A stretch of DNA of 64,000 bases from a virus (IMGVR_UViG_2830161386_000001:96001-160000), one strand, 5' to 3'; positions 3,901 through 59,143 are shown, counted from the stretch's first letter. Program-made: numbers and translations. The notes: generated from the sequence alone by a model not told the origin.

Positions 3901-5122
3901 CGTATGCTCCCGCCCCTACGCCAAGCGCGCCTCCGGCCATGCCGACGTTCTTGAGGCGCTCGGCCATTCCGGCTCCTCCTTCTTCGGCCGCCTCGGACGC
4001 ACCTTCCTCTGCCGCTTCTGAGCCGCCAGATTGACTGCTTGTCCCAGACGAACTCGTTCCAGATGAGCCGCTTACCGACGATTCGTCAACCAAGTCCTCC
4101 AGCTGCTGGCCCTCCCCCCCGGAGCTAGCTGCTTCGTCTGCCCCGCCAGGAGGAGTTCTGCTCATGCTCGCGTCACTTGTCCTCGGTGCAGTTCTGCCAA
4201 AACCCACCCCCTCTATCGGCTCTACATCTGCATTTCTCATTCGCACCTGCGGCGGCGAGAGGTCAATGCTGCGAGCCGCGTCGCTGAACATGTCTGCGAG
4301 CGAGCCACGCGCCTCTTTGCTCAGTCCCAGCTGGGACTCGGTGTTGGCCTCTTTGTCGCTAACCATAATTGGGCCAAATCCCGGCTGAGAGCTCTCGATG
4401 CGGGTTTTCTCTCCCTCGTCTCGAACGGTAAAGTCTCGGGTCCGGCGCACTCCGTTTGTTGTCCGCCCCATGTCGGCCTCGAAGTCCGTTCCATCTTGGT
4501 TCACGCTCACCTCCTCGGCGCTAACTGCCTGCGGGCTTGCCCGGTCGGCAACGGCACTGCCGCCCAGCGCGCCGAGCGCCCCGCCAGCAAGCGTCGCCGG
4601 GAGGCGGTACCGGTTTGGCACGTGACGAGACGTAAAGCCCAGCCCGGCGCCAATGCCTGCGCCTGACAATACGCCGATTCCCTTGTTTACTTGGCGATTG
4701 GCCTTGTTTTGCGATGCAGCCGATACAGCGACCATGTCCTGCTTCGTGGTTGTGTCATCAGACAAGTCTTTTGGCCCGTCCGCGAGCCCGGCTGCGCTTT
4801 TCAAAAACGCGTTTTTCTCCCCCGAAGCCCTGCCTGAAGAGTCAGCTGAAGACCCAGTTGAAGCGTTGGCTGAAGAGCGAGTTGAACCGCTGGATTCGGC
4901 GCTTGGCTGCGCTGCCGGTCGGGCAGGCGGGGCCGCCCGCACGTTCGGGGTCGCCATTATTTGCTGGCGTTTTGCGTCGGCAAGGCCTTTTTCGTATCCT
5001 TGGCGGTACCCTTCCCGGCGCCCCTGCTCTAGGCCCTCTGCGCCGCCGTACAGGTAGCCCCCACCGCCTGCAAGAAGGCCGGTCCCGCCCGCAATTCCGA
5101 TCGTCTTTGGCATAGATGGCAT
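971..5122 (-). CDS. 1383-aa modular virion/internal-head protein (putative polyprotein)
   Basis: Many K-x-A motifs (FLKSA x3, KEAS, KTAD, KTAA), glycine-zipper hydrophobic segments, CPHC..CPKC zinc ribbon, two CWDGY..VPNCVP repeats; adjacent to protease. Confidence 0.6.
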   Translation of the reverse strand: MPSMPKTIGIAGGTGLLAGGGGYLYGGAEGLEQGRREGYRQGYEKGLADAKRQQIMATPNVRAAPPARPAAQPSAESSGSTRSSANASTGSSADSSGRASGEKNAFLKSAAGLADGPKDLSDDTTTKQDMVAVSAASQNKANRQVNKGIGVLSGAGIGAGLGFTSRHVPNRYRLPATLAGGALGALGGSAVADRASPQAVSAEEVSVNQDGTDFEADMGRTTNGVRRTRDFTVRDEGEKTRIESSQPGFGPIMVSDKEANTESQLGLSKEARGSLADMFSDAARSIDLSPPQVRMRNADVEPIEGVGFGRTAPRTSDASMSRTPPGGADEAASSGGEGQQLEDLVDESSVSGSSGTSSSGTSSQSGGSEAAEEGASEAAEEGGAGMAERLKNVGMAGGALGVGAGAYELSSNKQAQNEPISNVEGSTSSRQTKNKSMNPFLKSAGRSDSSFDKKAEGEQQAQRAIARQVARNRRGQRRGNAIGNGVAIGGFTGAAGGALAGSNIGSGRAAPLAMLAGGALGGVGGGYIGSRLAPESVKPSEVDVRRQGEGLYQAVYPEGNRRDIQITRSPMGGYLAQEARSRRGGRRMQQGVQEPGNPAPRTPGPEGRPLQYTDSGSPVGRAKAMHEDRPSNRKQKETKQASTNAFLKSAESPPASPKEEGKINAAATIGGSLVPFAAPVAGHIGPVYNTAMDPRSESIGRNLGDYGSRYGYSTLYGAGGGLGGAAAGAAAGGAAGGLIGGAPGAAAGAAAAGGLGALGGAGYGFYRGGIAGRKSVDDKYNDQGEVRPDEVYLGKGNESMSFESSSKDQAESSAEKEASARSFRWVEKTAEPPQKALAQHAGQGPTTKRKHPAGAKSEKARQMLKKILMMKMLRAKQQRKQQEMQRAQGTSSSEESGGASEGSSSENGSSESGSSESGSADSSSEEDSSEESGDSGEDAAEKEAAKTCPHCGGEITEEGKCPKCGKEVSPEKEANLPDSYLLTDMAKAAAAEGAFRKVAEYEVVQGEGGWYVEKESTGERQNEEPHDTKEEARDHQKALHANVDDMGKEKEASSDCGCGEKTADDSSDSDPCWDGYEQIGMKTKNGKKVPNCVPKDDSKESAKTADDDSDPCWDGYKQVGMKTKDGNKVPNCVPKDDSEKNSSTYGTFARAFAPAGSPVYLPPETETGEKIARAYDQGKISEDEAIYLGALKKAMDKKADALSKTAAPGKVYGTGMMQKAKDALGDPDNRRLLAQGLLGAGLAAGPVASGISKAIDPIRERIRYNRMMELPGRDPKLIDDNMISDEGQRKSYGIEKDAPKEEANERARRQAFSILHEHAPQLTKTPVVARKIIDKNLTAGEPQELLRDAVRKGTDELERQEKRQRVSGNRSRSMMDAAKAIQP
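1710..1949 (-). repeat. Two 120-bp tandem units encoding KTADD..DPCWDGYxQxGMKTKxGxKVPNCVPKDDS
   Basis: agtcgtcyttcggsacgcagttsggcacct at 1711 and 1831. Confidence 0.9.
4323..4338. repeat. 16-bp palindrome, in frame (SQLG) between two KEA motifs
   Basis: agtcccagctgggact. Confidence 0.95.
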
Positions 5123-5152
5123 CGTAGAAGTGGTGTTTTTATTGGCGCCTGC

Positions 5153-6253
5153 TTAAAACTGACGCTTTTGCTTCTCCATGTCTTCCTCCTGCTTTCCGGC
5201 AAGCTGCCCGGCGGAGTAGCCCCCAAACCCAAGCTCAATCGTGCGCAAAAAAGGCTTCTCGGCCACGAAATTGCCGACGCCCTCCCCGACGCTTTCCGCG
5301 CCTCGTATTGTGCTTTTTGCCGTTTCCCCCAGGCCTTTCATAAAGTCTACGCCCTTGCTCCCAATGCTTGACATAATGCCGGCCTGCTTCTCGGCGAGGC
5401 CCGGGTGCACGTCGAAATCCGCCCCGCTTAGCGACTCGGCGTTTTCGGCGACCTTCGACGCAAGCCGGAGCGCCGCGGCATCCAGCGAGGCGTTGTCCGC
5501 GAGCTTTTTCAGCTCCGCGGCCTTCTTTCGAAGCGGAGCGTCTTCTGAAATTTTTGTCGGGCTACCCTCCTTTAGGTACTGCCGCTCAAGAGAATAGGGA
5601 CCGTCGTCCGGATATTCGCTTCGAGGAATCATGCCGTCGGCCTCCAGGCGGTTCAAGACGTACTCGATCACGTCTTTCCCGTGGCCTTCCTCCTTCATCG
5701 ACCGGAGCGCCTCTTTCGGGGAGGCGCCCTCGTAGATGCTATTTTTGATCTCCTCGTAGACCTCCTCCCGCTTTTGGCTGAGCTTGACGATGCGCCCTTT
5801 GAGCTGGTCGGCGGCCTGGTGGGCGATTTTTTCCGCGGCGCCCAGAAGGTGGCGGGCGTCCCGCTTCGGGCTCGGGGAGGGCACGTACTCCGCCCCGTAG
5901 ACGCCTGCAATCTTTGAGAACAAGCCGCCGTTTACGACCTCGTCGCTCTCGGGAGCAGCGGTTTTCTCGTGGCCCTCCGCAGGCCGAGGCGCAAACCCGG
6001 CGGTCTTCTCCGCCGCCTCTTTCGACCGGAGAATCTCCTCGGGCTCGGCCATTTCAAACTCGGTATACGCGCTTTCTTTCATCAGCTCCGCGTTGACCGA
6101 CCGGTTCGCGTAGTGGGCAACTCGCTCGATTTGCTGGTCGGTCAGGGACTGATCCGACGCGATTTTCCGAATCGACTCGTTTAAGGGCGTGTCGTCTTTG
6201 AGGTAAGACTCGGCGGCCTCTTTGCCGAGGGACTGAAGCGCCTCTTTGGTCAC
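5153..6253 (-). CDS. Putative head/core structural protein rich in K-x-A motifs
   Basis: 366 aa; KEAA, EKTAG, EKTAA, EKQAG; helical, lies in head module. Confidence 0.55.
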   Translation of the reverse strand: MTKEALQSLGKEAAESYLKDDTPLNESIRKIASDQSLTDQQIERVAHYANRSVNAELMKESAYTEFEMAEPEEILRSKEAAEKTAGFAPRPAEGHEKTAAPESDEVVNGGLFSKIAGVYGAEYVPSPSPKRDARHLLGAAEKIAHQAADQLKGRIVKLSQKREEVYEEIKNSIYEGASPKEALRSMKEEGHGKDVIEYVLNRLEADGMIPRSEYPDDGPYSLERQYLKEGSPTKISEDAPLRKKAAELKKLADNASLDAAALRLASKVAENAESLSGADFDVHPGLAEKQAGIMSSIGSKGVDFMKGLGETAKSTIRGAESVGEGVGNFVAEKPFLRTIELGFGGYSAGQLAGKQEEDMEKQKRQF

Positions 6254-6349
6254 GTTGGTGTAGAAGTTGAGCAGCCCCGATACAGAAGGGGCAGGTCGCT
6301 AGTGGCGTCTGTGTTTAGGGTAGCACATACATTTTCACAGCCAACCCGC

Positions 6350-11776: not shown

Positions 11777-11792
11777 AGTCCCAGCTGGGATT
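11777..11792. repeat. 16-bp palindrome copy
   Basis: agtcccagctgggatt, 3' of the stop at 11826. Confidence 0.95.
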
Positions 11793-15392: not shown

Positions 15393-18300
15393 CTACAAGC
15401 GGGGAATATCTAGCTCATTATCGACTTCGCGCTTGTACTGCTTGTACCGGGGCTTCGCGAGCACATAGGCGTCTTTGAGGCGCTTTTTCTCCCCAATGAT
15501 GCGCCCTCGGTCCTCCGGCGTTAGCTCCTCGTTTGCCCGGTCGAAGCTCTCAACGCGCTCGTCAACGTGGGGGCCGTGGCCAACGACTACGTCCATATCA
15601 TCGCCGTCAACGGTGCCGGACATAACGTACACTCCGTCTCGAAAACGGTTGTACGGGCTGCTTTCCAGGTCGGTAAACTTCTCCCGCACCTCCTCAATTT
15701 TGCTTCGGTACTCCTCGTCGCTGCCAGTTGGAATCGTGACGTCGATGTCAGAATCGTCATCGGGGACGTTAATGCCAAGTCCCATCGAGCCGTGCAGGCG
15801 CACCTTTTCGCCGAAGAGGTCTTTAAGCCGGTCTTGATCCGGCGCCTCCTCCTCTGCTCGCCGGGCCAGGTCTCGAAGCTCCTCTTTGTCTAGGTCCAGG
15901 TTCCCGTACACCTGATCTCGGAGCTTCGATACTGCCGACATGACCGTATCTGGGGCAGCAGTTTTCTCCTTTGCTGATTCGTTCAAATGTTGATACGCGC
16001 CACCAGCTAACGCCACGCCTCCTGCTCCGAGTGCCGCTCTAATACTGCCTTTATTCATCCGTTGAGCATTTCTGCCCAACCGCCCCGCCTCTTGACCCAC
16101 CTCGTAAGTCTGCAAGTACATTTTACGCAATTCACGTTCTTCTGGCGTAAACCCGTTTCCAAAACGAGAATTAGCCAGGTTTTGAGCCCGGTCCCACGCT
16201 CGCCGCTCTTCTCGTACTAAAGACGAATCAGGGTTTTTGCCCATTAGATCCTGCAAAACACCAGCTTGATCAGACTTCAACTTCTTGGTTTCTTTGAACC
16301 CTTCCAGCTCCCCATCAAAATCTTTGAAGTTCTTAAAGTGTCCAAGCTCATGCAAAAAACCAGCTCGATTTGAAGGCTCACTAACCATTATTCTTAGACT
16401 TTCTGAATCAGGTGTGATTGAGCCGGTGGCCGAATCTGATATACCAAATGCATCTTGTTTCCCTTTAACGACTTCGCCCGCAAAACCTTCTTGCCTCGCT
16501 AGATCCGTTGCCGCCTCAATGTTAGGGGCATCAGGCGCCGAACGCTCTAAATGTCTTGCTCGTGATCTCACTTCTCGCTTTAGATCGTTTTTGAGATTCT
16601 TCTGTGCCTCATCATAGTAAATGTGACCACCACGCATTGCCAAAGAGCCCGCCCCGAGGGCGCCTGCCGCAGCGCCGGCAGCCTCATCAACCTCAATTGA
16701 ATCGCTACCAGAAAATCCTTCGTTTTTATCGTCTACCGCCCCCTCTTTTTCGGCAAGATAGGCTCCTCCCGCCAAAGCCGGAGCCCCAACCATCCCAGCT
16801 CTCCCGGAACGGCTCAACCCCCGCCCCACTGACTCCAAACCTGATTGAACTTGCTTCAAGGGTTGCCGAAGAACGCTATCATAAGATTGGGCTGAGCCCT
16901 TTGTCCCTTCTACCATGCGGTGATAAGAGAGCTCTTGAAAAACGTCATGTGCCGCCCCTCCTGACCCCTTCATAATCTTAGATTGCTCCTCTGGCGCAAG
17001 CGATTTCAGGTCCTCCACGCTTGAGACGTCATAGCCCATTTTTTGCGCCTTCCCGAGATAGTTTTGCAAATGGGCCTCACGTCCGTTCAGATCGGAAGGG
17101 TCAGTATCCGAAGAAACACCAAGAGCTTCTTGTACTACGTGCTGAGCATCTTCAGCAACATTTCCGCCTGAAGACCCTGATTCTTGAATGGCTTTCTCTA
17201 CCTTCTCAGACAGGCTGCGAATTGACTCGTCAGGAACGTCATTATATTTGAATCCTTTTTTCAGCTCTTCATCTAGGGCGCTCATATAGTCTTCTCCACT
17301 TGCAGCCCGATTTTGCGCTGCCATTCGTGCTCCAATAAGGCGCTTACCCGTGTCTTCGACTGGATCGTCAAAGCTCTCTCCGTAAAACTGCGCGTGTCCG
17401 AATATCGGCCCTTTTTCAAACGCATCGTAGTGCGCCCGTTCAGCAGTTTGCGGCAACCCAGTCTGGTCTGAGAAATTCCGCATTGCCGGATTGTTAATAG
17501 CAGACATCATATCTGCCCCCGACACCTCACGTCCAGATATAGGAACTCGAAACTCTTTCTCTCGAAGGGTTCTTGATCCCGACTCAAAGTACTGATTCAT
17601 TGCCCGGGTGGGATCGTCAATATTTCTCATGCCCCCTACTTCCTCAAACGAATTAAGCCCTTTTTCTGTGACCAGTTTTGCACGGTCGGATTCAGGAAGG
17701 CGCTTTCCAGCAGCGTCCGTTGCTTTCCCCCCGGCCATGCCCACACCAGAAGCTAAACCAGTTTCTTCTTCTGAAAGCTGGTCGTCACCTAAGTCAATGC
17801 CACTAAGAGATAAGTCGTTTAATCCCAGCTGGGACTGAGGGGCCGCTTCTTTTTCTGCCTCTTCCTTTCTTTTTTCTGCTTCTTCCTCCAGAAGCTTAAT
17901 CAGCTGGTCGCTCAGTTCCTGCTTCTCTTTTGCGAGACCCTGAATGTACTCCTCGACCGAACCGGTCATGGTTTTGTCCCCGCCGAACACCGACCGGACG
18001 GCGTTGGACACCGATTTTTCGGGAAGCTCGGAGACATACCGTTTCACGTCGACTTGCCGCTCCTCCTCCGGTAGGCCCTCATGGCTTTTGTACCGGTCGG
18101 CGCGGGCAACCACCTGGTTGATCTTCTGCTCGTTCCAATGGGGCTCCATCACGTGAATCTCGTTTACCGCGTCGAGGTCAAGCCCCTCCCCGCCGGCCGA
18201 CGACATCACGAGGGTAGAGAGTTCTCCTTCGTTAAAGCGGCGCACGTCTTCTTCACGCTTGGACTGAGACGTGCTTCCGGTATACTCCCCGTAGTCAACG

Positions 18301-21300
18301 CCCTTCTCGTCGAGAACGGCCCGAAGCGGGTCAAGCCCGCTTTCCAAGAAGTTTGAGTAGACGACCTGCCGTTTCGAGGAGTCGTCTACCGCCTCCGCAA
18401 TCTCTTGAACCTTGGGGGAGTCCTGCCCGGCCTCAAGATCGGAGGCGTCCTCGTCAAACGCGTTGATTGAAGTTGCCACCTGGCGCGGCCCGTTCAGAAA
18501 CTTCATCATCTTGCCCCGCTCGTCCTTGTCCGGCGGCAGGTTGCTCTGCACCTTCCACCGGAGGTGCATCGGAAGGTCTTTAAACATGTACCGGTACGCG
18601 TCTTTCTGGCGCTTAGACATCGGCACGCTGACCTCCTCTTCCTCGACGTCCGGGTAGTTTTCGTTGTCGCGGTCCGGCTCGTAGTAGTCGACGTACTGGC
18701 GGAGCGGCTTTCGGAGGCTCTCCTTGCCGGTCTCTAGCTTTTTCTTGATGCCGGGCGTGCCGCCGGTTACCCGGTAGGCCAGTCCGCTTAGGCCGCCTGG
18801 ATACTCCTCCTCTTCGCGGACGTACTTCGTCTCGAATCGGGACTTGGTCTCCGGCAAAAGGTTTTCTCCTGCCGAGATGTTGACCAGAGGAGAAATCTCG
18901 TGCGGGTGGTTGTATACCGGAGTTCCGGTCATAAGCAGGTTCTTTTCCGCCGGGGTCTCCCGGAGGCGCTTCTTAAACTTGCTGCCCGTCGAGCGGGCGC
19001 GGTGGGCCTCGTCAACCACCCGCATGTCGGTTTTCTCGTCTCGGGGGCCCTCCATCGTGGCCTTCGTGTGGCTTTTTGGCTGGGGCGTGCCGCCGGTAAT
19101 GCCTTCATCGGTGTGCTTTTCAACCTCCTTGCGGAAGTTTTCCCGAAGGGAGGCCGGCGTTAGCACCCGCAGCATCGAGTCGGGGTCTTCTTGCCGAACG
19201 TCTTCCAGCGCGCTAATTGCGGATAGCGTTTTCCCAGACCCCATGTCATGAGCAGCTACAAGACCTTCTTGATTTTGCAAACGGTCCCGTACTCTCTTTT
19301 GGTGGGGCCGAAGCTCCGTGTTCAGATCTGAGTTTTTTTTAATTGAAGACTGTTTGTCTATGGCTGGCCTTCCATAACGCTCATTTGCTACGGCCATTTC
19401 TTTCGTCAATCCAGTTTTGGCCTCACGCTTTTCTGTAAGGCCGGAGTTAAAATCCATTGGCGCTGCCCTGGCGGTTTTTTCACCTTGTTGCATTGCTTCG
19501 TTAGCTGCATACCCACTAGCGGCAAGAAGGCCAAGCCCGGCGCCTCCTTTCCCAACCCCCTTTGCAAACCGACCCGAGTTCTTCCTTGCGTATTCCATCA
19601 CCTCATCGACGCTCAAGGGGTTGTAACCATCGCTTCCTTTGATATACTTGGGGTCGATGCCATGATCAAATACCCGAGATTTTTCTAATTCACGAAACTC
19701 CGCCCGGTGCTGCATCTGTCGCCCGGGAATATCAGCAAGAGGGTCCGTTTTTTTCTTCTCCACCAGAAATTCGTCAAGATTCCCGCCAGTTTCTGGGTTC
19801 GTTACTTCATTAATTTCCTCTTTCCACGTTGGAACTGATATATCAACTCGTTCCCCCAATCCCATTCCCGGAACCTTAACGCGAAGCAGCCCAAGCGGGT
19901 CTTGCATAAGCTTCTTCGGACCACCTGCAACAGCTTGCTCCCCGTACATTTTTGCTTGTGCCTTTTCCGGGGTTGTATACGTTTTACCCTTCGACTCTTC
20001 AAATACACTGGGCCGCTGGAATTCTAACCCCCCAAGATTTGGCCCAGACCCTTGCGAGGGCCTGAGGCCCTCTTGCCGAATTGACGCTGCTGCCTCTGGA
20101 GTAGTACCGTGATAAAGGGTTTCTCGGCCCGTGATGTCAGGCTTGGCAGACTCAAAAGTCTTTTTGCTTCCATAAAGCCCTGCGGCTGAGAGCCCAGCAA
20201 GCTGCTTATCTTTATCTAAGCCAGCTTTATCACTCACAAGAAGACGCTCCGAATCTGCTGTCTTTTCCGACCCTTCAACCACGTCTTCAAGATCGTACCG
20301 GGCCGACTCGTCTGCGTCTTGGTCCTCTGGCCAGAGGTCTTTTATCGACCAGTGATTGGCCGAGTGCGGGTCGTCTTTCGTGGGGTTTCCGTCCCCGTCG
20401 GTAATGCCCTTCGCTCGGGCAAGATAGTTTTGCTTCGCGTCTTCGCTGTAGTTGTGCTTGTGGTCGGAGGAGCCGTAGTGAATGAGCTTCACGCGCTTCT
20501 CCCCGTCTACATCTTTTGAGGCGAGCACCGCCCGCTTCTTCCCGTCTCGCCAGGACTCAACCGGCTGGTCAACCGGCATCCAGCGGCCCCGATATTTTGC
20601 CTTGGTCGTCCCGTTTTCCTCTTCAGTCTCTAGGTCTTTTAGTTGCCGCGCTCCCTCTTTCAGAAATGCCTTGTCGCTAGCGGTTTTCTCGCTTTGCAGT
20701 CCCAGCTGGGATCCTATGGCTTGACCTGTTTCGTTCTGGGCCGATTCCTTTTGCATTCCAGGCTGGACTTGAGGCGAGACGCGGGCCCGGTTTGGGCTCA
20801 GGCGCTGGGACTGCGGCGCGAGCGGACCGGCGGGGTGCCCTACGTTTTGCGCCGCCCGCTCTACGCGGCGCTGCTCCCGGCGCTCCTGCGGAGACAGTTT
20901 GACGTTCGGCTGCGTAGCGCGGTAGCCGTAGTTTCCCGCCAGCCCGGCGCCGGCGGCAAGCCCCGCTCCTGCGAGCGTTTTCCCGTCTCGCTTTAGCGCC
21001 TCCCCCGCGTCGCTGATGCCACTAGAAATCGAGTCTCCCGCCTCCCGCATCGACTGGCGGAACTGAAAGCCCAGGTCGTTGTCGACCATTTTCTGCCCCG
21101 CCTCCATGCGCATGTCTCCAAAGAGGTCCTCCACGCGGCCAGTCGCCTCCTCTGCCGACATCGACTCGGTCGGCGGCGCGTCTCCCATCTCTTGTCGTTT
21201 TTTGAACTCGCTCAAGGCGTCTTCGAAGCTGGGCATGCTCACGTCATCGCCCATGCCAAAGAGCTTTTTGCCCTTATTTAGCGCCGCTCCAAATACACTC

Positions 21301-31872: not shown

Positions 31873-32700
31873 CTACCACCGCAAAAAGAGCGATACCTCG
31901 CTGATCGGGCGCACCGGCCCGCCGCCAATCCGAGACTCCGCCCCGGCCGCCACTTCTGCCGAAAGGCGAAGCCCGCCGCCAAGCCGAATTCCGCCGGAAA
32001 GCGCCGCCCGCGCCTCGCCGTACAGCCCGGACGGGCGGGCAATCGTCCCGGCCCCGACCGACCACCCGGAGGTCCACCGGCTTTTAGGCGCCGGTCTTAG
32101 CGAGGAGCGTTCCTGCCGGCCGGATTGGGCCGACACCGACTCAAGAGAGAGCCGGGCCGGCAGGTCCACGTACGTCCGGCCTACGCCGGACTGGTCAACG
32201 GTTTGCACCAGCGACACTCGCTCCCGCCGGGGCAGGAGCCGGATGCGGTACCGGAGCCTGTCGCCGGGCGGACGGACCCAAATCCGCCCCTCATGCCGGT
32301 TTCCGCCGATGTCGTGAACGTAGCGGCCATTTTCTCTTGGCGCCTTCGACCGGCCGGACAGAGTGTCCTCTCTTGTTTCTACGACGGCCTCCACGCGCCG
32401 CGAGACGTCGCCTTGAGCGGAGTCCGGGGCAGTAAGGGTATCGGTACTCGGCTCGTTTGCCGACGCCCAGAGCGACCGCATCGCACCGCTGGCCGCCTCG
32501 TACTCGTTCACGACGCGAAGGGACTCCTCAAGAGCGGCGACCTCCTGAGTTTTGCGTCCCAGCTGGGACTGAAGGGCTTGGTTTTGCGACTGAAGCGACC
32601 AGACGTACCCAAGCCCCGCCGCTACCAAAAGCCCGGCGGCGGCGTACGGCAGAAGCGGGCGGAGCGACGAAAGCGAAACGCGGCTTATAAACGGGATCAT
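31873..32700 (-). CDS. Membrane-anchored coiled-coil protein with C-terminal beta strands (spanin-like?)
   Basis: N-terminal TM helix, coiled coil, Gly-rich amphipathic strands ending SLFLRW. Confidence 0.5.
   Translation of the reverse strand: MIPFISRVSLSSLRPLLPYAAAGLLVAAGLGYVWSLQSQNQALQSQLGRKTQEVAALEESLRVVNEYEAASGAMRSLWASANEPSTDTLTAPDSAQGDVSRRVEAVVETREDTLSGRSKAPRENGRYVHDIGGNRHEGRIWVRPPGDRLRYRIRLLPRRERVSLVQTVDQSGVGRTYVDLPARLSLESVSAQSGRQERSSLRPAPKSRWTSGWSVGAGTIARPSGLYGEARAALSGGIRLGGGLRLSAEVAAGAESRIGGGPVRPISEVSLFLRW
32555..32570. repeat. Palindrome copy, in frame (SQLG)
   Basis: cgtcccagctgggact. Confidence 0.9.
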
Positions 32701-40032: not shown

Positions 40033-40048
40033 AGTCCCAGCTGGGACT
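40033..40048. repeat. 16-bp palindrome copy
   Basis: agtcccagctgggact, 6 nt 3' of the dut stop. Confidence 0.95.
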
Positions 40049-40054: not shown

Positions 40055-40624
40055 CTACACGCCGGTGGACCCGAAGCCGCCCTCCCCTCGATCCGTGTCG
40101 GACGGGACCTCCTCGACCTCCTCGAATTGGGGGCGGATTACCGGACGGATTGCGGCTTGGGCGATGCGGTCCCCCGTTTCAACCGCAAACGGATCGCCGG
40201 ATCGGTTTTCAAGAAGGACCTTCACCTCGCCTCGGTAGCCGGGGTCGACGGTTCCGGGACTGTTGGCGACGCTAATGCCACTTCGGGCCAGCCCACTTCG
40301 GGGGCGGATTTGCATCTCTAAGTTGGGGGGAAGGGCGATTTTCAGCCCAGTGGGGACAAGGGTGTTTTTCCCAGACGGAATGATAATCCCCTGCGCGCTC
40401 GGGTCGACGCCCTCAGCGTTTATGAAGGCCCGCAGGTCCAGCGCCGCGTCTAAGGCGTTTTCCTGCCGGGGCATGTCTACGTCCTCGTGCATGCGCTCGA
40501 CGTGGACGGTCGGGCGCTCGGCCCCCCGAGGGGCGCCTTCAAATTCGATGTCAACGTCTGTAGGAGCGTCTTCACTGCCGCTATGTGGGGCGGCGGGAGA
40601 AGCGCTTGCGTTTGGCGTGCTCAT
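40055..40624 (-). CDS. dut: Trimeric dUTPase
   Basis: AALDL, RPRSGLA, GTVDPGYRGE, GDRIAQ, RGEGGFGSTG; start uncertain (40624 or 40666). Confidence 0.96.
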   Translation of the reverse strand: MSTPNASASPAAPHSGSEDAPTDVDIEFEGAPRGAERPTVHVERMHEDVDMPRQENALDAALDLRAFINAEGVDPSAQGIIIPSGKNTLVPTGLKIALPPNLEMQIRPRSGLARSGISVANSPGTVDPGYRGEVKVLLENRSGDPFAVETGDRIAQAAIRPVIRPQFEEVEEVPSDTDRGEGGFGSTGV

Positions 40625-40671
40625 CGGTATCGATTCGGGTGGGTGGTGCGGAAGAAGAGTGGACATAGTTG

Positions 40672-40935
40672 CTACCGGCCTGGCGGATTTGACTCCGGGC
40701 GGGACGGAAACAGGTCTTTGGTGTTGGGGTCGCGGTTGTACTGGAAGGCTAGCTCCTCGTCGCCGGCCATCTCGCAGAGGTTCTCGTAGTCGCTTCGGCC
40801 GATGTGTTCGGCTTCCTCGTAGCCGCTGGCCTCCAGAAGGCGCTGGGCGCCAGAGCGGCTGTAACCGGTCTCCAGCGCAATCGCCCAAAACCGGGCGGCT
40901 TGCTGATCGGAAATCGTCGTGTCAAGATCACTCAT
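40672..40935 (-). CDS. Hypothetical protein
   Basis: Start re-called to MSDLDT. Confidence 0.6.
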   Translation of the reverse strand: MSDLDTTISDQQAARFWAIALETGYSRSGAQRLLEASGYEEAEHIGRSDYENLCEMAGDEELAFQYNRDPNTKDLFPSRPESNPPGR

Positions 40936-44794: not shown

Positions 44795-44810
44795 AGTCCC
44801 AGCTGGGACT
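44795..44810. repeat. 16-bp palindrome copy
   Basis: agtcccagctgggact, 3 nt 3' of a stop codon. Confidence 0.95.
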
Positions 44811-47784: not shown

Positions 47785-47800
47785 AGCCCCAGCTGGGATT
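47785..47800. repeat. Palindrome copy (variant)
   Basis: agccccagctgggatt, 3 nt 3' of a stop codon. Confidence 0.85.
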
Positions 47801-49266: not shown

Positions 49267-49282
49267 AATCCCAGCTGGGACT
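49267..49282. repeat. 16-bp palindrome copy
   Basis: aatcccagctgggact. Confidence 0.95.
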
Positions 49283-51665: not shown

Positions 51666-51759
51666 GACGTTTTAGGTTGGTGAGAAAGAAGAAAAAGCCA
51701 GCCCCAGCTCAATCCCAGCTGGAACCGGCCGCGGAGGCAACTCGATATTTGAGAGCCGC

Positions 51760-52410: not shown

Positions 52411-52484
52411 AAATGGAATAGGGTCTTATTAGCAAGCAAGAAAAAGCCAGCCCCAACTGAGTCCCAGCTGGGATTGGCCTAGAG

Positions 52485-52682: not shown

Positions 52683-52774
52683 AGCAAGTCAGGGTTTGCG
52701 GAATGGGAAATGAAAAAAGCCAGCCCCAACTCAATCCCAGCTGGGACTGGCCGCTGATTGCTTTCTAAGACGCT

Positions 52775-53413: not shown

Positions 53414-53776
53414 CTACTTTTGCGCCTCCTCACGGAGCCGCTCGATCGCTTTCTCCGGCACGTTGTATCCAGCCTCCCGAATCTCGGCGAGCCGCTCTGC
53501 GGCGCTCTCTGCCGTTTCTTCTTCAAACCACTCTCCGTCCAGCGGGCCGCCGATGGGCACCATCTCCGCGCCTTTGACCAAGTCCATGACCTCCCGCCAG
53601 TATTTGGCATACCGCTCCCCAAAGTCCTCCTCGCTTTCGTCCGGCTCCGGCGGTAGCCCGGACCGGTCGACGTCGTGCTCCTTGCGGGCCACGTCGATTT
53701 GGTAATGGCCGGCGGCGTGCTTGTAGACGTATACGTGAGAGCGAAACGCATTTGTCGAAAACCGGGCGTAGGACAT
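53414..53776 (-). CDS. Hypothetical phage protein (MSYARFS..S.VYVY..GYNVP)
   Basis: 120 aa. Confidence 0.7.
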   Translation of the reverse strand: MSYARFSTNAFRSHVYVYKHAAGHYQIDVARKEHDVDRSGLPPEPDESEEDFGERYAKYWREVMDLVKGAEMVPIGGPLDGEWFEEETAESAAERLAEIREAGYNVPEKAIERLREEAQK

Positions 53777-53813
53777 AAAGCGTTAGTGGTTGGCTTATGG
53801 AAATAAAGCGCCG

Positions 53814-54191
53814 TTAGTCTTGGGCCTCTCTTTTTCTGAGTCCGCACCTGGCGCACTTCTCGTACCCGTGTTCTCGGGTTTCATCTTCGTGCCGGATGTC
53901 AAATACCGGAATGCTCTCCTGCTTCCAGCGGTGCTCACAGTCTGCTTGCACCGACCGCTCGGACAGCTGGTCAATGAAAAACTGGGCCGCATGCTTAATC
54001 TGCCTCGCCTGATCAATTATGTCCTGGTCGCTTCGGCTAAGGGCCGTCGATCCGGCAAGGTCTTTGAGCAGACCTGCAACTTGCTCTCTCGTCATGTCCG
54101 CCGGCATCCCGTCCGTCGGCGGCACTTTCATCAGCTTCAATACATCAACCGCCTCGTCTGAGAGGTTTTTCTTTGCCTGCTTGTTGATCAT
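53814..54191 (-). CDS. Hypothetical protein with C-terminal CxHxW..CxxCG
   Basis: 125 aa. Confidence 0.65.
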   Translation of the reverse strand: MINKQAKKNLSDEAVDVLKLMKVPPTDGMPADMTREQVAGLLKDLAGSTALSRSDQDIIDQARQIKHAAQFFIDQLSERSVQADCEHRWKQESIPVFDIRHEDETREHGYEKCARCGLRKREAQD

Positions 54192-54268
54192 AGTTTTGAA
54201 GTCGTTTTTGAAATAAAAAACAGCCCCAACTGGATCGCAGCTGGGGCTGGCTATGTGCTAGCTTTTAG

Positions 54269-54484
54269 TCATCGTCGGGGGTGCGGGATGTCGTGACCGC
54301 TTGTGCGATCCCGGTAGATCTCCATGCGCGACTCCCCGCCGATTAACCGATCTATGAGCCGCACGTCCCGGCTTGCGTCTCGGGCGCAACGAGGCTGTCG
54401 CGGACACAGTTTTCGAAGAGCGGCCTTTCGGATACCCTTCATTTGACTGTTTCTCGACGCGTGTATGAGGTCGGTCTTATTCAT
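54269..54484 (-). CDS. Small basic hypothetical protein
   Basis: 71 aa between two family-A repeats. Confidence 0.55.
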   Translation of the reverse strand: MNKTDLIHASRNSQMKGIRKAALRKLCPRQPRCARDASRDVRLIDRLIGGESRMEIYRDRTSGHDIPHPRR

Positions 54485-54557
54485 TTTTAAAGTTGTATTT
54501 TATGAGAAAGAAAAATAGCCCCAGCTAAATCCCAGCTGGGACTGAATTGTAGGTTGC

Positions 54558-54899
54558 TTAATTATCTCCCTCCGCGATTTCCTCCGCACGCGCCTGCATG
54601 CGGTCGATTTTTCGCTCTCTCTTCCAGAGCTTGTACCGCTCCCGTACATTCCGCTTCAACTGCTGCGCTTTCAGATACCCATACCTCGAAACGGCTACCG
54701 GAAGCGCAATAAATAGCCCGACTCCCAGTAGCGAGGTTGCGAAAGCGGGGCGCCTCTCAAACAGCCCCCGAAAGTTCTCGGGCATATCCGACTCGTTTCT
54801 GGGCTTTTCCATTTCCCTTAGCCCCCACTCGACGGCAGCACAGGTCCAATACGCCCAGCCGCCAACGTACAAGACAGCGAAGGTCAGAAAGTAGAGCAT
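54558..54899 (-). CDS. Two-TM membrane protein
   Basis: Start re-called to MLYFLT. Confidence 0.6.
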   Translation of the reverse strand: MLYFLTFAVLYVGGWAYWTCAAVEWGLREMEKPRNESDMPENFRGLFERRPAFATSLLGVGLFIALPVAVSRYGYLKAQQLKRNVRERYKLWKRERKIDRMQARAEEIAEGDN

Positions 54900-55029
54900 A
54901 GTAAAACCCGGAGTACAATGCCTCCGGGTCAGGGCGTTTGTCGTAAGTAAAGTGAGCAGACGCACATTCCCTCGTCTATTTCTATGGTGGGGATTTGGCG
55001 CCGAATTTTGCGGGGGCCTACTTGCCTTT

Positions 55030-55269
55030 TCAGTCCGGAAGCGGCGGGGGCGTCTCCCGGAAGCCAAGCAGCCACCCGGCCCCGACCGTGCCCCAAACGG
55101 CGAGGTATGCCAGGCCAAACAGCGGCCAGCCGAGGATAAACGCCGAGGGGTCCGGTTCCCCGAAAATCCGAGCGAGGCGCATCGCAAAGAGGCCAATCAG
55201 CGGGTACAGGGCCGCCGCGTAGGCCCACCACGGCAGCACGTAGACGTGCTCTGCGTACCAGGACAGCAT
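55030..55269 (-). CDS. Small membrane protein
   Basis: 79 aa, hydrophobic. Confidence 0.6.
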   Translation of the reverse strand: MLSWYAEHVYVLPWWAYAAALYPLIGLFAMRLARIFGEPDPSAFILGWPLFGLAYLAVWGTVGAGWLLGFRETPPPLPD

Positions 55270-55325
55270 GTCAGGGGCGCGTGCTTTTTGGAAGGCAAAC
55301 CTGAGAGGGAAACCTGAGGGAAGGC

Positions 55326-56186
55326 CTAATGGCCGTCGGCGGCGATCTCCTGGGCGCTGGGCTCGCCCTGAAGCCGGCGGATCACCGGATACTCCATCTG
55401 CCGGTAGAGGTGTTTCCGGAGCGCCTTGATCTGCGGCCCCGCCTCCTCGATGTACGTCGACCGGAGCATCTCCAGCTGGTTCACCGTCCGGTTGGCCCCG
55501 GCGCCCTTGGCGTAGAGAATCGCCGTCTCGAAGTCCAGCCCCGAATCGACAGGTGTCCCGACCGACTCCCCGCTGATGAGGTCGACCGGCTCGTGGGGCC
55601 CGGCGTCCTCCACGATGTCCTGCGCGACGGCGGAGGCCATCTCCTCCTCTACCTCCGGCTCTAGGCGAAGCACCGCTGAGCGCTTTTGGGGCCGCACCTC
55701 CACAACGTCAATCAGGCCGCTCTCTTCGTCCATCTTCTCCAGGCGGTCCTCAACGGTCCCGCCTGCGCCCCGCGCTTCCATCATCGCCTCCAGCTCCGGG
55801 AAGCCAATTTCCATCACGCTGGGCCGCCCGGCCTTCGCCGCCCAAAACTCGTCGGGCATCGGGCCCTTCCCGCTCATAAAGAGCACAAAGTCCCGCAGGG
55901 CCGGGCCGCTTGCGGCCTGGACGACCGTGTCCGGGTCCGCGTCGGTCGCCTGCACCTCCTCGATTACGGACTTGGCCTCCTCCTTCCAATCCTCCCCGCC
56001 GTTGGCCGAATAGGTCATCCCTAGAATCGACACAAGGGCGGCGAGGCCCTCTGGGCCTTCTTCCTCCTGCTCCCAGCCGAACGGAAAGTCCTCGGTGGAC
56101 TCCGCCCGGCGGGTAATGGCATCGCTTAGGGTCTCAAGCGCTTGGTCTTCGATCTTTTCTTCTACAGGCGTGCTCATAAGAGACAT
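55326..56186 (-). CDS. Acidic hypothetical protein
   Basis: 286 aa. Confidence 0.75.
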   Translation of the reverse strand: MSLMSTPVEEKIEDQALETLSDAITRRAESTEDFPFGWEQEEEGPEGLAALVSILGMTYSANGGEDWKEEAKSVIEEVQATDADPDTVVQAASGPALRDFVLFMSGKGPMPDEFWAAKAGRPSVMEIGFPELEAMMEARGAGGTVEDRLEKMDEESGLIDVVEVRPQKRSAVLRLEPEVEEEMASAVAQDIVEDAGPHEPVDLISGESVGTPVDSGLDFETAILYAKGAGANRTVNQLEMLRSTYIEEAGPQIKALRKHLYRQMEYPVIRRLQGEPSAQEIAADGH

Positions 56187-56540
56187 GTGCTATTTACGAA
56201 AACAAATGAGGGTTCGGTCGGCTTCTACGCCGAAGCAAACTGCTTCACGTCCAGCGCCTCCTCCTCTTCGGCCTGCCGGAGATGGTACTGCATCTGTTGG
56301 GTAAGCCAACTTTCCGGGCTGCCGCCGAACGCCTTCGAGAGGCGGATTGCCATGTTTGGGGAGATCCCCGCCCGGCCATTCAGGAGCGCCGAAAGGTGCT
56401 TCCGGCTTACGCCAAGCCCTTCGGCCGCCTCGGTGATCGTAAGATCCAGCGGCTCGATGCAGTCTTTGCGGACGGTTTCACCTGGGTGTGGAGGAGTCAT
56501 GCTCATAAGAGACATGGGCTATTTGCGAGAACGAATGGGG
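56171..56540. repeat. 41-bp imperfect direct repeat (56171-56211 and 56500-56540) bracketing higA
   Basis: 36 of 41 positions identical by manual alignment. Confidence 0.88.
56225..56515 (-). CDS. higA: HigA-family antitoxin (orphan)
   Basis: PPHPGE..LTITEAAEGLGVSRKHLSALLNGRAGISPNMAIRLSKAFGGSPESWL..Q..Y. Confidence 0.93.
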   Translation of the reverse strand: MSLMSMTPPHPGETVRKDCIEPLDLTITEAAEGLGVSRKHLSALLNGRAGISPNMAIRLSKAFGGSPESWLTQQMQYHLRQAEEEEALDVKQFASA

Positions 56541-56788
56541 GAGTTTTCGGCAAACTTCTGGAGGGCCTTCGGGGCGAAGGCGGCGAGCAAAAACCCGAAC
56601 ACGATGTAAACGCCGGGGCCGCTGGCCGCCCCTTCGCCGGTGACGACAAGCCCGCCGAACACAATGGCCGCCACGAGAGCGATCATGCTCATCACCCGCA
56701 TCGCGGAGGTCCGGCCGGGGCGCTCCTCCAGCATGCCGGTCTGGGGGCTACTCTTCGTTTTTGGTGTCTTCGTCTTGGATTGGCTCAT
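56519..56788 (-). CDS. Holin-like two-TM protein
   Basis: S..RVMS, two TM helices, PKALQKFAE basic tail; near DUF5675 gene. Confidence 0.5.
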   Translation of the reverse strand: MSQSKTKTPKTKSSPQTGMLEERPGRTSAMRVMSMIALVAAIVFGGLVVTGEGAASGPGVYIVFGFLLAAFAPKALQKFAENSPIRSRK

Positions 56789-57200
56789 CGGGCTCGTCGG
56801 ATCGGGTCCAAAGGTTAAAGTTGCGCTCGCGGGCCACCGGCTTGAAGTCCGAGAAACTCGGGTAGACCTTGTTGTCCCCGAGCTTGAGCTTGGCCTTCTC
56901 CGGGCCCATGATCGTCAGGCTCGGCATCCCGCCGTGCTCGTCCCCGACGTACACCGCCCAGCCGGGGTCGCCTTTCAACTTGATGCGAGCGGAGCGGCCC
57001 TCCGCGCTTACCACCGCGCAAATCGGGCCGGACGCGCCTTTCAGCATCACCGCCTGCTCGCTCAAGGACGGCGGGGCCCCGCTCAGCTCCCCGATCGCGG
57101 CGACCAGCTCGGCCCGGGACACCTCCAGGTCCGCAAAGATGTCGTAGGCGGATTCGCCGCTTTCGGCTCGGGACCGGATTTCGTTGATTAGCTGCTGCAT
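56748..57200 (-). CDS. Hypothetical protein with N-terminal HTH-like segment, paralog of 57213..57602
   Basis: GESAYDIFADLEVSRAELVAAI. Confidence 0.6.
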   Translation of the reverse strand: MQQLINEIRSRAESGESAYDIFADLEVSRAELVAAIGELSGAPPSLSEQAVMLKGASGPICAVVSAEGRSARIKLKGDPGWAVYVGDEHGGMPSLTIMGPEKAKLKLGDNKVYPSFSDFKPVARERNFNLWTRSDEPDEPIQDEDTKNEE

Positions 57201-57212
57201 GGGATCGGTTTT

Positions 57213-57602
57213 TTAGTGGGCAGCCGAGCGGTTTGCCTCCCGGACGACCAGCTCCTCCCCTCGCATGTCGAGGCTTACGTCCAGGTACGGCGCCTGGGCC
57301 CGCACCGTCGGCACCGGGCTTTGGGCGTTTACGTTCAGGCGCCAGCGGGGCTCGCTTCCGAGGCGGACCGCAACCCCGCCGCTGCTTAGGTCCAGCTCCA
57401 TCGGCACGCCGGAAATCAAAACCGCGTCGGCGCCTTTCTCGCTGGCTCCGGCAATGGCCTCGACAAGGCGGACGCCGGATACGCCGAGCTTCTCCGCAAT
57501 TTCTCGGGCCGGAGTTCCCTCTGCCAGAAGCGACTGGATCAGGGCCACGAGGCCGTCGTCGGACATGCTTCCCTTCGGGACAATCGGGCTGTTTTGTGCC
57601 AT
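57213..57602 (-). CDS. Hypothetical protein with N-terminal HTH-like segment
   Basis: GTPAREIAEKLGVSGVRLVEAI. Confidence 0.6.
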   Translation of the reverse strand: MAQNSPIVPKGSMSDDGLVALIQSLLAEGTPAREIAEKLGVSGVRLVEAIAGASEKGADAVLISGVPMELDLSSGGVAVRLGSEPRWRLNVNAQSPVPTVRAQAPYLDVSLDMRGEELVVREANRSAAH

Positions 57603-57621
57603 TGAGTGTCGTAATTTTGTC

Positions 57622-58116
57622 TTAAAGACTGGGCAAATCGGCCCCGGCGCGAACGTTTTTGCTCATCTCTTTGGCCTTCGCTTCCGCCTTTTCCAAGGCG
57701 CCGATGAGGTCGCCGTGGCCTTCTCCGCCAAGCCCGGTGGCGCACTGAAGCACCCGCTTGGCCGTCTCGATTGTCATGCCCCAATCGGACAGGTACGGCC
57801 GCAGCCCCGCAATCTCCTCCGGGTCGGCTGGGTCGGGCAGGTCCCGCCCCTCCCGGCGAAGAGACACCCGGAGGTTGCCGGTGGCCTGGGCCGGCGTGCT
57901 GCCGGTGCCCACCATCGGGACGCCTGCCGCCTCGCGCACCGCCCAAAACTGCTCCGACGCGCTGCGGGAGGCGTAGATGCCGTCGGGAACGCGCTCGGTT
58001 TTTGCGACGGGCCAGGCGTGCCATTCCCCGCCGCTGAAATCCCCCTCAAACCGGTCGGGGATCAGCAAAAGCGGGTAGACGCTTCGGTCGGGCCGGACTA
58101 CGGAAACGGTATTCAT
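57622..58116 (-). CDS. Hypothetical protein (YPL....DRF.G.FSGG.W.AW)
   Basis: 164 aa. Confidence 0.65.
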   Translation of the reverse strand: MNTVSVVRPDRSVYPLLLIPDRFEGDFSGGEWHAWPVAKTERVPDGIYASRSASEQFWAVREAAGVPMVGTGSTPAQATGNLRVSLRREGRDLPDPADPEEIAGLRPYLSDWGMTIETAKRVLQCATGLGGEGHGDLIGALEKAEAKAKEMSKNVRAGADLPSL

Positions 58117-58128
58117 ATCGCTTTGAGG

Positions 58129-58698
58129 TTAAGGGGTCGGGTCAATCTCGTCGGGAATGTGCTCGTCGATCTCGACGGCCTTTTCGTCGAGGCCGGCCAC
58201 GAGGCCGTCCCACTCCGGCTCGGTGTCGGGCACGGCGATTTCGGTTTCAAACCGGCCCTCATATCCGTCTTGGATTTCAAGCGGCACGCTCCCTTCGCTT
58301 TGAAGCGGGCCGGAAAGCACGTCGCGGAGCCGGGAGAGCGTGGGCCCCGAATGGGTGACGTCCGGGTGGCCGTCTCCGTTTATGTCCACGAACTTGCGGC
58401 CGACAAGTATGCACCCGAGGATTTGGGTGTACAGGTTGCCCCGGTGGATCAAAATGTAGGAGCGGCCCTCCACGTCTCGGACGTGAAAGTGGTCGTAGCC
58501 GAAGCTTCCGGACTCGACCGCCTCCCTGTACTCGACCGGATAGGTCCCGGCCGGGATGCAGCTGACGCGGTTTTTGTTTTCCCGCCAGGGGAGCTCTAAG
58601 GTTTTGCACTTGAGGACCTGCTCGTCTCCGTTTCGGACCTCAAGGGTGCCTCGGGTCTGAACGTCGGACTTGTAAAGGCGGCGAAGAAGTAGTTTCAT
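58129..58698 (-). CDS. DUF5675-family protein (putative cell-wall hydrolase/endolysin)
   Basis: TLELPW..N...SCIPAGTY..V.GRS.ILIH.GN....GCILVG. Confidence 0.85.
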   Translation of the reverse strand: MKLLLRRLYKSDVQTRGTLEVRNGDEQVLKCKTLELPWRENKNRVSCIPAGTYPVEYREAVESGSFGYDHFHVRDVEGRSYILIHRGNLYTQILGCILVGRKFVDINGDGHPDVTHSGPTLSRLRDVLSGPLQSEGSVPLEIQDGYEGRFETEIAVPDTEPEWDGLVAGLDEKAVEIDEHIPDEIDPTP

Positions 58699-58738
58699 AT
58701 CAGGTAGGAAGCGCAAGCGTGAAGCTCAAACGCGAATT

Positions 58739-59089
58739 TCAGTCGTGAAGCAGCGCAGCCTGCCTTAGCTCCTCTTCTCGGCGGCCGCTTGGCATGTGGC
58801 GAAAGTGCGACGCAATCTCCTCCCTACTCATCTTTGCGGGAGCGTCCAGGGCAAAAGGCGCGCCGGGAAGAACGTTACTCTCGTGCCGGGCGCGCGTGAT
58901 CAGCCCGTTGATCTCGCTTAGTTCCTGCTTTGAAACCGGGCGGGTCCGGACGCGGCCCTGGGCGTGGCGAAGGATGTCTTCCGGGCCGCTGAGCCGCTTT
59001 TCCGGCCACGGAATTGCGGTCATCGCGCCGACCTCAAACTCCGGCGCCGGCTCGTTCGTCCACCGCGCTAGAAATACATGCTTAACCAT
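58739..59089 (-). CDS. Hypothetical protein
   Basis: 116 aa. Confidence 0.6.
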   Translation of the reverse strand: MVKHVFLARWTNEPAPEFEVGAMTAIPWPEKRLSGPEDILRHAQGRVRTRPVSKQELSEINGLITRARHESNVLPGAPFALDAPAKMSREEIASHFRHMPSGRREEELRQAALLHD

Positions 59090-59127
59090 AACTTATTGGG
59101 GGAATTTGAAGAACGTGATGCTCGTTC

Positions 59128-59143
59128 AGTCCCAGCTGGGACT
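59128..59143. repeat. 16-bp palindrome copy touching a stop codon
   Basis: agtcccagctgggact. Confidence 0.95.

Follow-up and report, generated by a model that had tools for sequence, protein, structure and literature searches.

A 16-bp perfect palindrome, AGTCCCAGCTGGGACT, recurs about once per 6 kb along the whole 198-kb genome of an uncultured, large tailed phage, at intervals far more even than random placement produces. The element was noted in a stretch of 64,000 nucleotides (IMGVR_UViG_2830161386_000001:96001-160000, hereafter the window), which comes from a virus record of 197,771 bp (genome label G000), where it spans bases 96001-160000. A reading of the window made from the sequence alone had proposed a genome-wide system of double-stranded DNA sites for a dimeric protein, analogous to parS, matS or mycobacteriophage stoperators, had named candidate binders within the window, and had pointed to the rest of the phage genome, its relatives, host genomes and the regularity of the spacing as places where the idea could be checked. 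On the evidence set out below we hold, with moderate confidence, that the palindromes are putative docking sites for a dimeric phage DNA-binding protein, whose purpose would be genome-wide silencing, road-blocking, organisation or segregation.

Within the window, the core of the palindrome, TCCCAGCTGGGA, has 13 exact matches, with core starts at 4325, 11779, 17823, 20700, 27489, 32557, 40035, 44797, 49269, 52462, 52735, 54530 and 59130 (each 16-mer starts 2 nt earlier). These are the 13 cores that the sequence-only reading had listed, all found where it had placed them, and 100 dinucleotide-preserving shuffles contained none. A search allowing up to 2 mismatches returned 21 window sites against about 4 expected, and recovered the three variants also listed in that reading (at 47785, 51711 and about 54232) as cores at 47787 (CCCCAGCTGGGA), 51713 (TCCCAGCTGGAA) and 54235 (TCGCAGCTGGGG, with 2 mismatches). 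An additional one-mismatch site at 1902 is intragenic and looks like a chance match. Extending the scan to the 197,771-bp genome gave 32 exact core copies and 5 one-mismatch copies, as against no match for the reversed-word control, and a k-mer scan placed the palindrome by far at the top of the over-represented words.

Alignment of all copies showed that the conserved unit is the 16-bp dyad with C or G on either side. No further conservation and no asymmetric element was found within 60 nt on either flank, and the copies resemble each other over no more than about 20 bp. The half-site AGCTGGGA occurs 36 times in the genome, 32 of them inside the palindrome, and is not enriched on its own. The dyad is exact through its centre, without a spacer, and its symmetry ends at 16 bp. 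At the next outer position, counted over 35 copies after two coding, chance-like one-mismatch sites were dropped, the two bases are mostly non-complementary (C..C 15, G..G 9, C..G 5, G..C 1), and the 18-mer with C..C ends is present in both orientations, 15 and 9 times. Since this outer pair is anti-complementary, a longer hairpin has not been selected. Positions 2 and 15 vary without compensation; the alignment thereby bears out the lack of a spacer and the uncompensated variation described earlier. An exact central dyad in which identity rather than mere pairing is kept hints at selection of the kind that a symmetric dimer on duplex DNA would exert. Nine of the 32 copies have another CAGCTG-like box at a distance of exactly 11 bp (5 at +11 and 4 at -11, with 0.2 expected per offset), which hints at a further site facing the same side of the helix, an arrangement known from cooperative operators.

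The spacing of the copies was compared with random placement. The coefficient of variation (CV) of the gaps is 0.49, against 0.96 for random sites, a degree of evenness reached in 0 of 20,000 simulations; the longest gap measures 13.5 kb, where random placement gives 25 kb on average (P=0.001). When 26 simulated sites were confined to intergenic segments the CV was about 1.0-1.1, and again 0 of 20,000 simulations reached the observed value, so that the array is a spacing-controlled lattice rather than a repeat that lands wherever room exists. The earlier description of the window, with copies 3-7.5 kb apart over the first 45 kb and denser at 47-55 kb, holds, and the even spacing is kept through giant genes too.

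Of the 179 genes given by a crude codon-usage caller, 176 lie on the minus strand, and 88% of the DNA is coding; 24 of the 32 exact copies fall in the 12% that is non-coding. Intergenic copies are usually found 0-85 nt past the stop upstream of them, with the next start 24-61 nt further on, the latter being true of 17 of the 26 non-coding copies (24 exact and 2 one-mismatch). A position 0-60 nt 3' of a stop codon, as first described, is thus correct once the genes are read on the minus strand, the range being mostly 0-85 nt. Among the eight copies called coding, two may be intergenic (genome 74192, at the extreme start of an open reading frame (ORF), and 128557, near an ORF start with an alternative start downstream), and the copy at genome 184490 occupies the last codons of repA. 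Five are deeply intragenic (genome 45623, 83524, 100325, 113823 and 116700), in genes of 1499, 3826, 1383, 2172 and 2172 amino acids (aa), respectively. Genes of at least 1383 aa make up about 20% of coding DNA, by arithmetic on gene-call lengths, so the presence of all five intragenic copies in such genes is unlikely to be due to chance (about 3 in 10,000). The window copies with cores at 4325, 17823 and 20700, and that at 32557 near an ORF 5' end, use the SQLGL frame, by our reading the one with the most favoured codons, and the intragenic window copies sit in linker-like sequence. The copies in the window, given as 16-mers in window coordinates, are as follows, together with the promoter-like sites considered further below.

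4323..4338, within a 1383-aa gene (971..5122, minus strand), read as SQLGL
11777..11792, intergenic, 34 nt past the stop of a 1175-aa gene; followed on the minus strand by a separate canonical hairpin and T-run terminator
17821..17836, within a 2172-aa SNF2-type gene, where it is read as SQLGL in an acidic linker
20698..20713, second copy within the 2172-aa gene, in a poorly conserved linker; 3-aa gap in the relative L084
27487..27502, intergenic, 57 nt past the ribonucleotide reductase stop, with a GC-rich hairpin directly before it in the sense direction
32555..32570, at the 5' end of ORF 31873..32700; may be intergenic, should translation begin at the TTG that lies downstream, after AGGAGG
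40033..40048, intergenic, 7 nt past the stop of a dUTPase-like ORF (40055..40888) and 56 nt before the next start
44795..44810, intergenic, with a stop 4 nt before it and the next start 36 nt after it
47785..47800, one mismatch; its end lies 6 nt short of the GCGCAAA box belonging to a promoter-like motif (CACCATA at 47751)
49267..49282, intergenic by the crude gene calls
51711..51726, minus strand, one-mismatch copy; supplies the 5' arm of an intrinsic terminator, in which it pairs with a degenerate second copy ahead of a T-run
52460..52475, minus strand, 5' arm of an intrinsic terminator; together with the preceding gene, it belongs to 51666-52712, missing from variant contigs of 3 runs
52733..52748, minus strand, 5' arm of an intrinsic terminator; the first base of this module is where the indel joint 51665->52713 ends
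54233..54248, minus strand, two mismatches; part of a terminator-like module at whose edge the indel joints 54249->54903 and 54254->54903 begin
54528..54543, minus strand, pairs with a degenerate second copy and is followed by a T-run
59128..59143, abuts the stop of gene 59143..59661; the next start follows after 39 nt
12012, 36371, 47751, 53395 and 54983, minus strand, CACCATA sites of the promoter-like motif; ten further sites elsewhere in the genome

These features suggest a model in which the 16-bp dyad would be a duplex docking site for a dimeric, phage-encoded protein, repeated in a spacing-controlled array of 32 exact copies across the whole genome at about one per 6 kb. Copies would be placed in the scarce non-coding DNA where possible and, where giant genes leave no intergenic DNA, written into permissive linker codons. 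The job of the array would be to silence or road-block the one-directional transcription, to provide centromere-like handling of a plasmid-like replicon, or both, and it would act like KorB at its OB operators or like stoperators. The binder may be a ribbon-helix-helix-like protein encoded after parA, or a small protein that our searches did not recognise. In the early, hypervariable region the palindrome and a degenerate neighbour are co-opted as a terminator stem, and these modules appear to double as breakpoints for the gain and loss of small gene cassettes.

Candidate binders were sought beyond the window, where the genome carries a plasmid-type module consisting of a 263-aa ParA, a 138-aa protein (P0039, L014:2286-2699) directly downstream and a RepA-family initiator on the opposite strand. 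The ParA matches AAA_31, CbiA and MipZ as well as the PHROG family 'ParA-like partition protein' (E=1e-61); like type Ib proteins, it is small, Walker-type and without an N-terminal DNA-binding domain. The parA start has a palindrome copy 31 nt upstream of it, and the 3' end of repA contains another, so that a palindromic site of about 13-16 bp stands beside the partition genes, as in ParB-parS and KorB-OB systems. The 138-aa protein has a disordered N-terminus and a C-terminus whose ESM Atlas neighbours, at borderline scores, fall in CB_ParB_C, Arc, HicB, CopG-type and RHH_9 clusters; it had no Pfam match and no PDB sequence match. As leads only, these neighbours suggest a ribbon-helix-helix-like protein, and the pair that it would form with ParA is a better candidate partner for the palindrome than the proteins named in the sequence-only reading. 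Between the divergent parA and repA are six TTACACGACAGTACA-type iterons (L014:3648-3861, genome ~182.5-182.7 kb), four at a spacing of 22 bp and two at 20 bp; the palindrome is present there as a single copy. Iterons, parA and repA together make up a plasmid-like origin and partition region in a 198-kb phage, which may therefore persist as a plasmid prophage.

Two of the binders named earlier fared poorly. The 'ParB-like domain' at window 14980-15190 gave no Pfam ParB match, and its PDB matches to sulfiredoxin/ParB reached only E ~1. This DGHHR-type stretch forms the N-terminus of the 1175-aa protein, where it has a weak resemblance to the ParB/sulfiredoxin fold, and it is conserved in L084, a relative that shows no lattice. 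In L084 the homologous segment lies in a 1,946-aa ORF that also matches the 2172-aa SNF2-type protein. The second, a 96-aa HigA-like protein (56228-56515), scores as a plasmid antitoxin with a helix-turn-helix domain. It is encoded in a stretch, window 56009-56675, whose contig depth was 3-20 times that of neighbouring bins in 3 of 4 metagenome runs (217 versus about 16 in run X8), and the high depth indicates a toxin-antitoxin module that is probably shared with other abundant organisms. Among the small proteins of the window, the 135-aa XRE protein (59665-60072) and two weak helix-turn-helix proteins (50047-50397 and 57216-57602) are further candidate binders.

The distribution of the motif was determined in viral and prokaryotic collections. 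The 16-mer was found in 3 other IMG/VR contigs, once each, one of them a 99%-identical fragment of this phage. Among 185,579 prokaryote species genomes, a collection that may not include the host, the 16-mer occurs at 67 loci and is dispersed in no genome. Multiple matches were confined to a Myxococcota metagenome-assembled genome (MAG), with 7 loci in one repeated element, and a Cohnella genome, with 2 loci in a tandem array. The host search that had been proposed thus came back without a dispersed motif in any species covered, and the motif is private to this phage lineage. Within the species that it covers, the same scan rejects a host-resident repeat of the repetitive extragenic palindromic (REP) type.

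Homologues of the terminase are present at 68-77% identity in the protein collection used. L084, the only closer relative obtained, has a terminase at 68% identity, a G+C content of 46% and synteny over 15.4 kb. A polymerase-based scan gave no close relatives, and a profile-based scan gave distant phages only. One of these, the 210-kb phage G001, encodes a fused RNA polymerase about 30% identical to that of the phage studied here, and carries 22 dispersed copies of a motif of its own, the 18-bp GCGGT-AATTAAGC-ACCGC (GCGGTAATTAAGCACCGC). That motif is present in both orientations, is intergenic in 18 of 22 copies, and is moderately evenly spaced (CV 0.64, P=0.018). Its closest pair of copies brackets a ParB gene (G001:C1:106520-107538, L133), 19-35 nt from the stop and start, and the encoded protein is a canonical 312-aa ParB with a GERR motif and a helix-turn-helix. 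No ParA homologue was found in G001.

As regards the original proposal of a parS-, matS- or stoperator-like system, the dimeric site is supported indirectly by the dyad, the spacing, the second box, a separate promoter motif and the G001 array; the ParB-like and HigA binders are the part that found no support. A number of observations weigh against the docking-site reading itself. A ParB-family protein with PF02195, the counterpart of the palindrome in ParB-parS and KorB-OB systems, was not found: a six-frame search of the whole genome gave nothing at E<=0.1, using the same search that matched G001 and control genomes, and the genome has no match to the G001 ParB. The six iterons are a more conventional candidate site for the ParA partner or for RepA than the palindrome is. 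The 99%-identical strain fragment carries a point mutation at the centre of one copy. In the 15.4 kb of L084, where about 3 copies would be expected, there is no recurrent palindrome or repeated 12-mer. Two complete genomes with a related polymerase, G002 and G003, have no dispersed motif at 6 or more exact copies, only tandem coding repeats, so that the array is not a conserved necessity. The search of relatives thus gave an analogous array in G001 and none in L084, G002 or G003, so such lattices are sporadic and lineage-private, with at least one tied to ParB. Two further points favour a role in RNA. Variants at positions 2 and 15 keep a G-U pair on the sense RNA 9 times and on the antisense 4 times, a weak bias toward an RNA hairpin, and five copies in the early region (window 47-55 kb) are genuine terminator stems. 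In that region the palindrome and a degenerate copy downstream of it form a stem of 13-15 bp, followed by a T-run, after each small gene.

We therefore considered whether the palindrome is RNA punctuation, with its hairpin acting as a terminator, pause site or attenuator for the phage RNA polymerase, or as a REP-like protector of mRNA 3' ends. The G-U bias and the early terminators are in keeping with this, as is the position of most intergenic copies 0-85 nt past a stop codon, and the phage has its own polymerase. All copies can fold to a stem of 6-7 bp with an AGCU loop, and a T-run starts no more than 16 nt downstream in 7 of 37 copies and 24-35 nt downstream in 4 more. The hairpin directly followed by a U-run that defines an intrinsic terminator is nevertheless absent from 30 of the 37 copies. 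Canonical terminators are found between a copy and the next gene at three copies (genome 188423, 107779 and 53017), and a hairpin precedes four copies. The five copies in giant genes would cut or pause their own mRNAs. Neither a self-complementary loop nor sequence identity is needed by a hairpin, and covariation is absent, with the next outer pair anti-complementary. The even spacing is left unexplained, and the analogous G001 motif is present in both orientations relative to transcription. We consider RNA punctuation unlikely as the general explanation, with an appreciable chance of being correct. The preference for a DNA site over an RNA hairpin expressed in the sequence-only reading is supported indirectly by the exact dyad and the uncompensated variation, and has to be qualified for the early region: at least five copies there are halves of intrinsic terminators, and for those an RNA role is a real possibility.

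A different element has the properties expected of a promoter. It is a strand-specific, bipartite motif in which a GCAAA(A/T)AT box is followed, after about 15 nt, by CACCATA; of 15 CACCATA sites in the genome, 14 have a GCAAA box about 24 nt upstream, and four cluster at genome 188-194 kb. Most are then followed by a conserved hairpin (ATAGACGAGGGG...CTCGTC) and TCTCACTC. From its sequence, the motif could be a class of promoters read by the phage polymerase or by a host polymerase that the phage directs. Only 2 of the 15 sites adjoin a palindrome, which in both cases ends 6 nt before the upstream box; efficient termination at the palindromes would therefore silence downstream genes, a further difficulty for RNA punctuation. 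The existence of a distinct promoter motif and of ordinary T-run terminators argues that the palindrome is neither a general promoter nor a general terminator.

The early region also bears on the possibility that the palindrome is a selfish or recombination-promoting repeat that shuffles cassettes, in the manner of T4-type promoter/stem-loop cassettes, REP sequences or miniature inverted-repeat transposable elements. Window 51666-52712, which contains two small genes and two motif modules, is missing from contigs of 3 metagenome runs belonging to different studies and is replaced there by 27 other letters; the joint, 51665->52713, closes precisely on the first base of the following module. Another joint, likewise present in 3 runs, begins at the edge of the 54235 module, and across the runs compared contig cover was near nil at window 52007-52673. 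These joints are suggestive of recombination between repeated modules, although they were called at 85% likeness, a level prone to artefacts. Partial tandem second copies at 9 of 32 sites, the occurrence of the C..C-ended 18-mer in both orientations (15 and 9), as copied units would give, and the lineage specificity of the motif would also fit a mobile unit. On the other side, a Pfam search of 184 predicted phage proteins found no transposase, REP-associated tyrosine transposase (RAYT) or integrase, and copies have no similarity past about 20 bp. Dispersed copies were present in none of the 185,579 prokaryote species genomes, the 7 hits of the Myxococcota MAG being within one repeated element. 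Only one intragenic copy could be aligned with a homologue; in L084 it corresponds to a 3-residue gap in a poorly conserved stretch, and a clean 18-bp (six-codon) insertion was not seen there. Copying does not yield even spacing. A mobile or recombination module is in our view improbable as the main function of the palindrome.

It is very improbable that each copy is a phage RNA polymerase promoter opening a transcription unit of about 6 kb, like the near-identical promoters of T7-like phages: a start codon 24-61 nt downstream of 17 of the 26 non-coding copies, the very high sequence identity (phage polymerase promoters are near-identical in sequence), the phage-encoded polymerase and the operon-scale spacing are what it would predict, yet a perfect dyad is directionless while 176 of 179 genes run one way, there is no conserved asymmetric flank within 60 nt, the bipartite strand-specific motif supplies 15 promoter-like sites of its own, and at the three copies listed above (genome 188423, 107779, 53017) a terminator stands before the next gene. 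Further candidates were rejected. A bidirectional Chi-like site is ruled out by the half-sites, which are not enriched alone (32 of 36 within the palindrome); a restriction or methylation site, by CAGCTG outside the motif, which is not avoided (62 seen, 87 expected); and integron-like attC sites, by the lack of any integrase among the 184 predicted phage proteins searched with Pfam.

The docking-site reading was compared with known systems. In behaviour, the closest published analogue is the repeat of Cluster O mycobacteriophages (Corndog and relatives), which have an actinobacterial host and in which a phage RNA polymerase is not known to be involved. It is a 17-bp dyad repeat, TGTTCGG-N3-CCGAACA, present in more than 30 copies and of unknown function, for which the authors predicted a dimeric DNA-binding protein (PMC4351075). 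Like the palindrome studied here, it is a single invariant inverted repeat with more than 30 copies genome-wide, many of them intergenic and about a quarter to a third intragenic, and untied to predicted promoters in that account (PMC4351075). The differences are that the Cluster O repeat has 7-bp arms, a 3-bp spacer and another sequence, as opposed to a 16-bp dyad without spacer; that those genomes are about 70 kb, with repeats densest at one end and even spacing not claimed; and that few if any repeats were found in indels by those authors, whereas some copies here are breakpoints (PMC4351075). The phage does not carry the Cluster O repeat, and its terminase is at most ~23% identical to that of any isolated phage.

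KorB with its dispersed operators is the closest mechanistic model; the IncP plasmid RK2 has 12 dispersed OB sites. As here, the mobile replicon carries a single palindromic operator scattered along its whole length every few kb, and KorB is reported to act at promoter-proximal as well as distal and intragenic sites and to be coupled to a ParA-type partition ATPase (PMC11790492). KorB is described there as a range-limited sliding clamp, which would explain why spacing matters, and as a ParB-family CTPase (PMC11790492). No ParB N-terminal domain was detected in the present phage. The protein beside parA here, in contrast to KorB, looks ribbon-helix-helix. That fold is not known to slide.

The stoperators of Cluster A phages are present in dozens of copies in short intergenic gaps near stops and starts, and one phage protein uses them to silence the genome. 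Dozens of copies of a single site in short gaps near stop and start codons are common to both cases. Stoperators are asymmetric, 13-14 bp long and oriented with transcription, whereas the palindrome is perfectly symmetric over its 16 bp. Neither an immunity repressor nor an integrase was identified in this phage. The plasmid-prophage N15 has four dispersed palindromic centromere sites among its phage genes, read by SopB, a ParB-type protein; its partition sites are thus scattered rather than clustered at the par operon, as would be the case here, with 32 evenly spaced sites and no ParB-type protein found. REP sequences and bacterial interspersed mosaic elements (BIMEs) are short GC-rich palindromes after stops, some of which double as terminators or mRNA stabilisers (PMC3733652, PMC8266576). 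The palindrome shares the GC-rich composition, the position past stop codons and the terminator role of some copies; REPs are described as imperfect, 20-40 bp long, chromosomal, present in hundreds of copies and paired with RAYT (PMC3733652, PMC8266576). Here, by comparison, there are exact 16-bp identity, even spacing, no RAYT and no dispersal in any scanned host genome; neither a Y1 transposase (184 proteins, Pfam) nor a high host copy number (185,579 genomes) was found.

More broadly, we put forward tentatively, as a possibility rather than an expectation, that some large phages with one-way transcription and a giant RNA polymerase keep a private dyad 'address lattice' in which a maximum spacing is selected (about 6 kb, no more than 13.5 kb). 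Such a lattice would be read here by a type Ib ParA/ribbon-helix-helix pair or by a new dimeric protein that silences, compacts or segregates the genome, with the repeat recycled as terminator stems and cassette joints. Selected spacing, together with separate promoter and terminator signals, narrows the mechanism to one that needs a site within a fixed distance of all DNA; range-limited spreading or sliding of a protein, loop anchoring and road-blocking are processes that would fit. If phages of about 200 kb commonly carry private lattices, as G001 suggests, they would constitute a general, undescribed layer of phage genome organisation and a source of orthogonal protein/site pairs. Apart from Cluster O, the literature searched contained no account of a large phage with a palindrome lattice that is evenly spaced. 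With a single 16-bp duplex and a few candidate proteins, the array makes a simple test object.

The genome that carries the array is 60.7% G+C, with a 95-bp terminal repeat that probably reflects circular assembly. Most of its proteins had no match; those that did indicate a large tailed phage of a bacterium. They include terminase, a protease-like protein, tail proteins and RIIA, as well as replication proteins (DnaB, a DnaC-like loader, primase, a Pol III alpha-type polymerase, RecA and thymidylate synthase). The RNA polymerase is a 2,453-aa beta-beta' fusion interrupted by an intein (L013:12305-19663, minus strand), and the ribonucleotide reductase also contains an intein, with a LAGLIDADG domain (window 27562-31605, minus strand). 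A Phd/YefM-type antitoxin gene lies at window 25118-25378, amid replication and nucleotide-metabolism genes. By crude gene calls, a strong one-strand bias is common to this phage (176/179) and G001 (212/227), two distant phages of about 200 kb with a giant fused RNA polymerase. CTGCAG and CTCGAG are wholly absent from the genome, where 41 and 76 occurrences, respectively, would be expected, and CGCGCG is ten-fold depleted; this looks like avoidance of host restriction sites and is unconnected with the motif. The 20 sequencing runs listed as carrying the phage, from 8 studies, include no RNA run. Megablast of the window's first 25 kb gave no match among isolated phages, and contigs near-identical to window 40001-60000 are present in hypersaline-lake and brine metagenomes of four studies.

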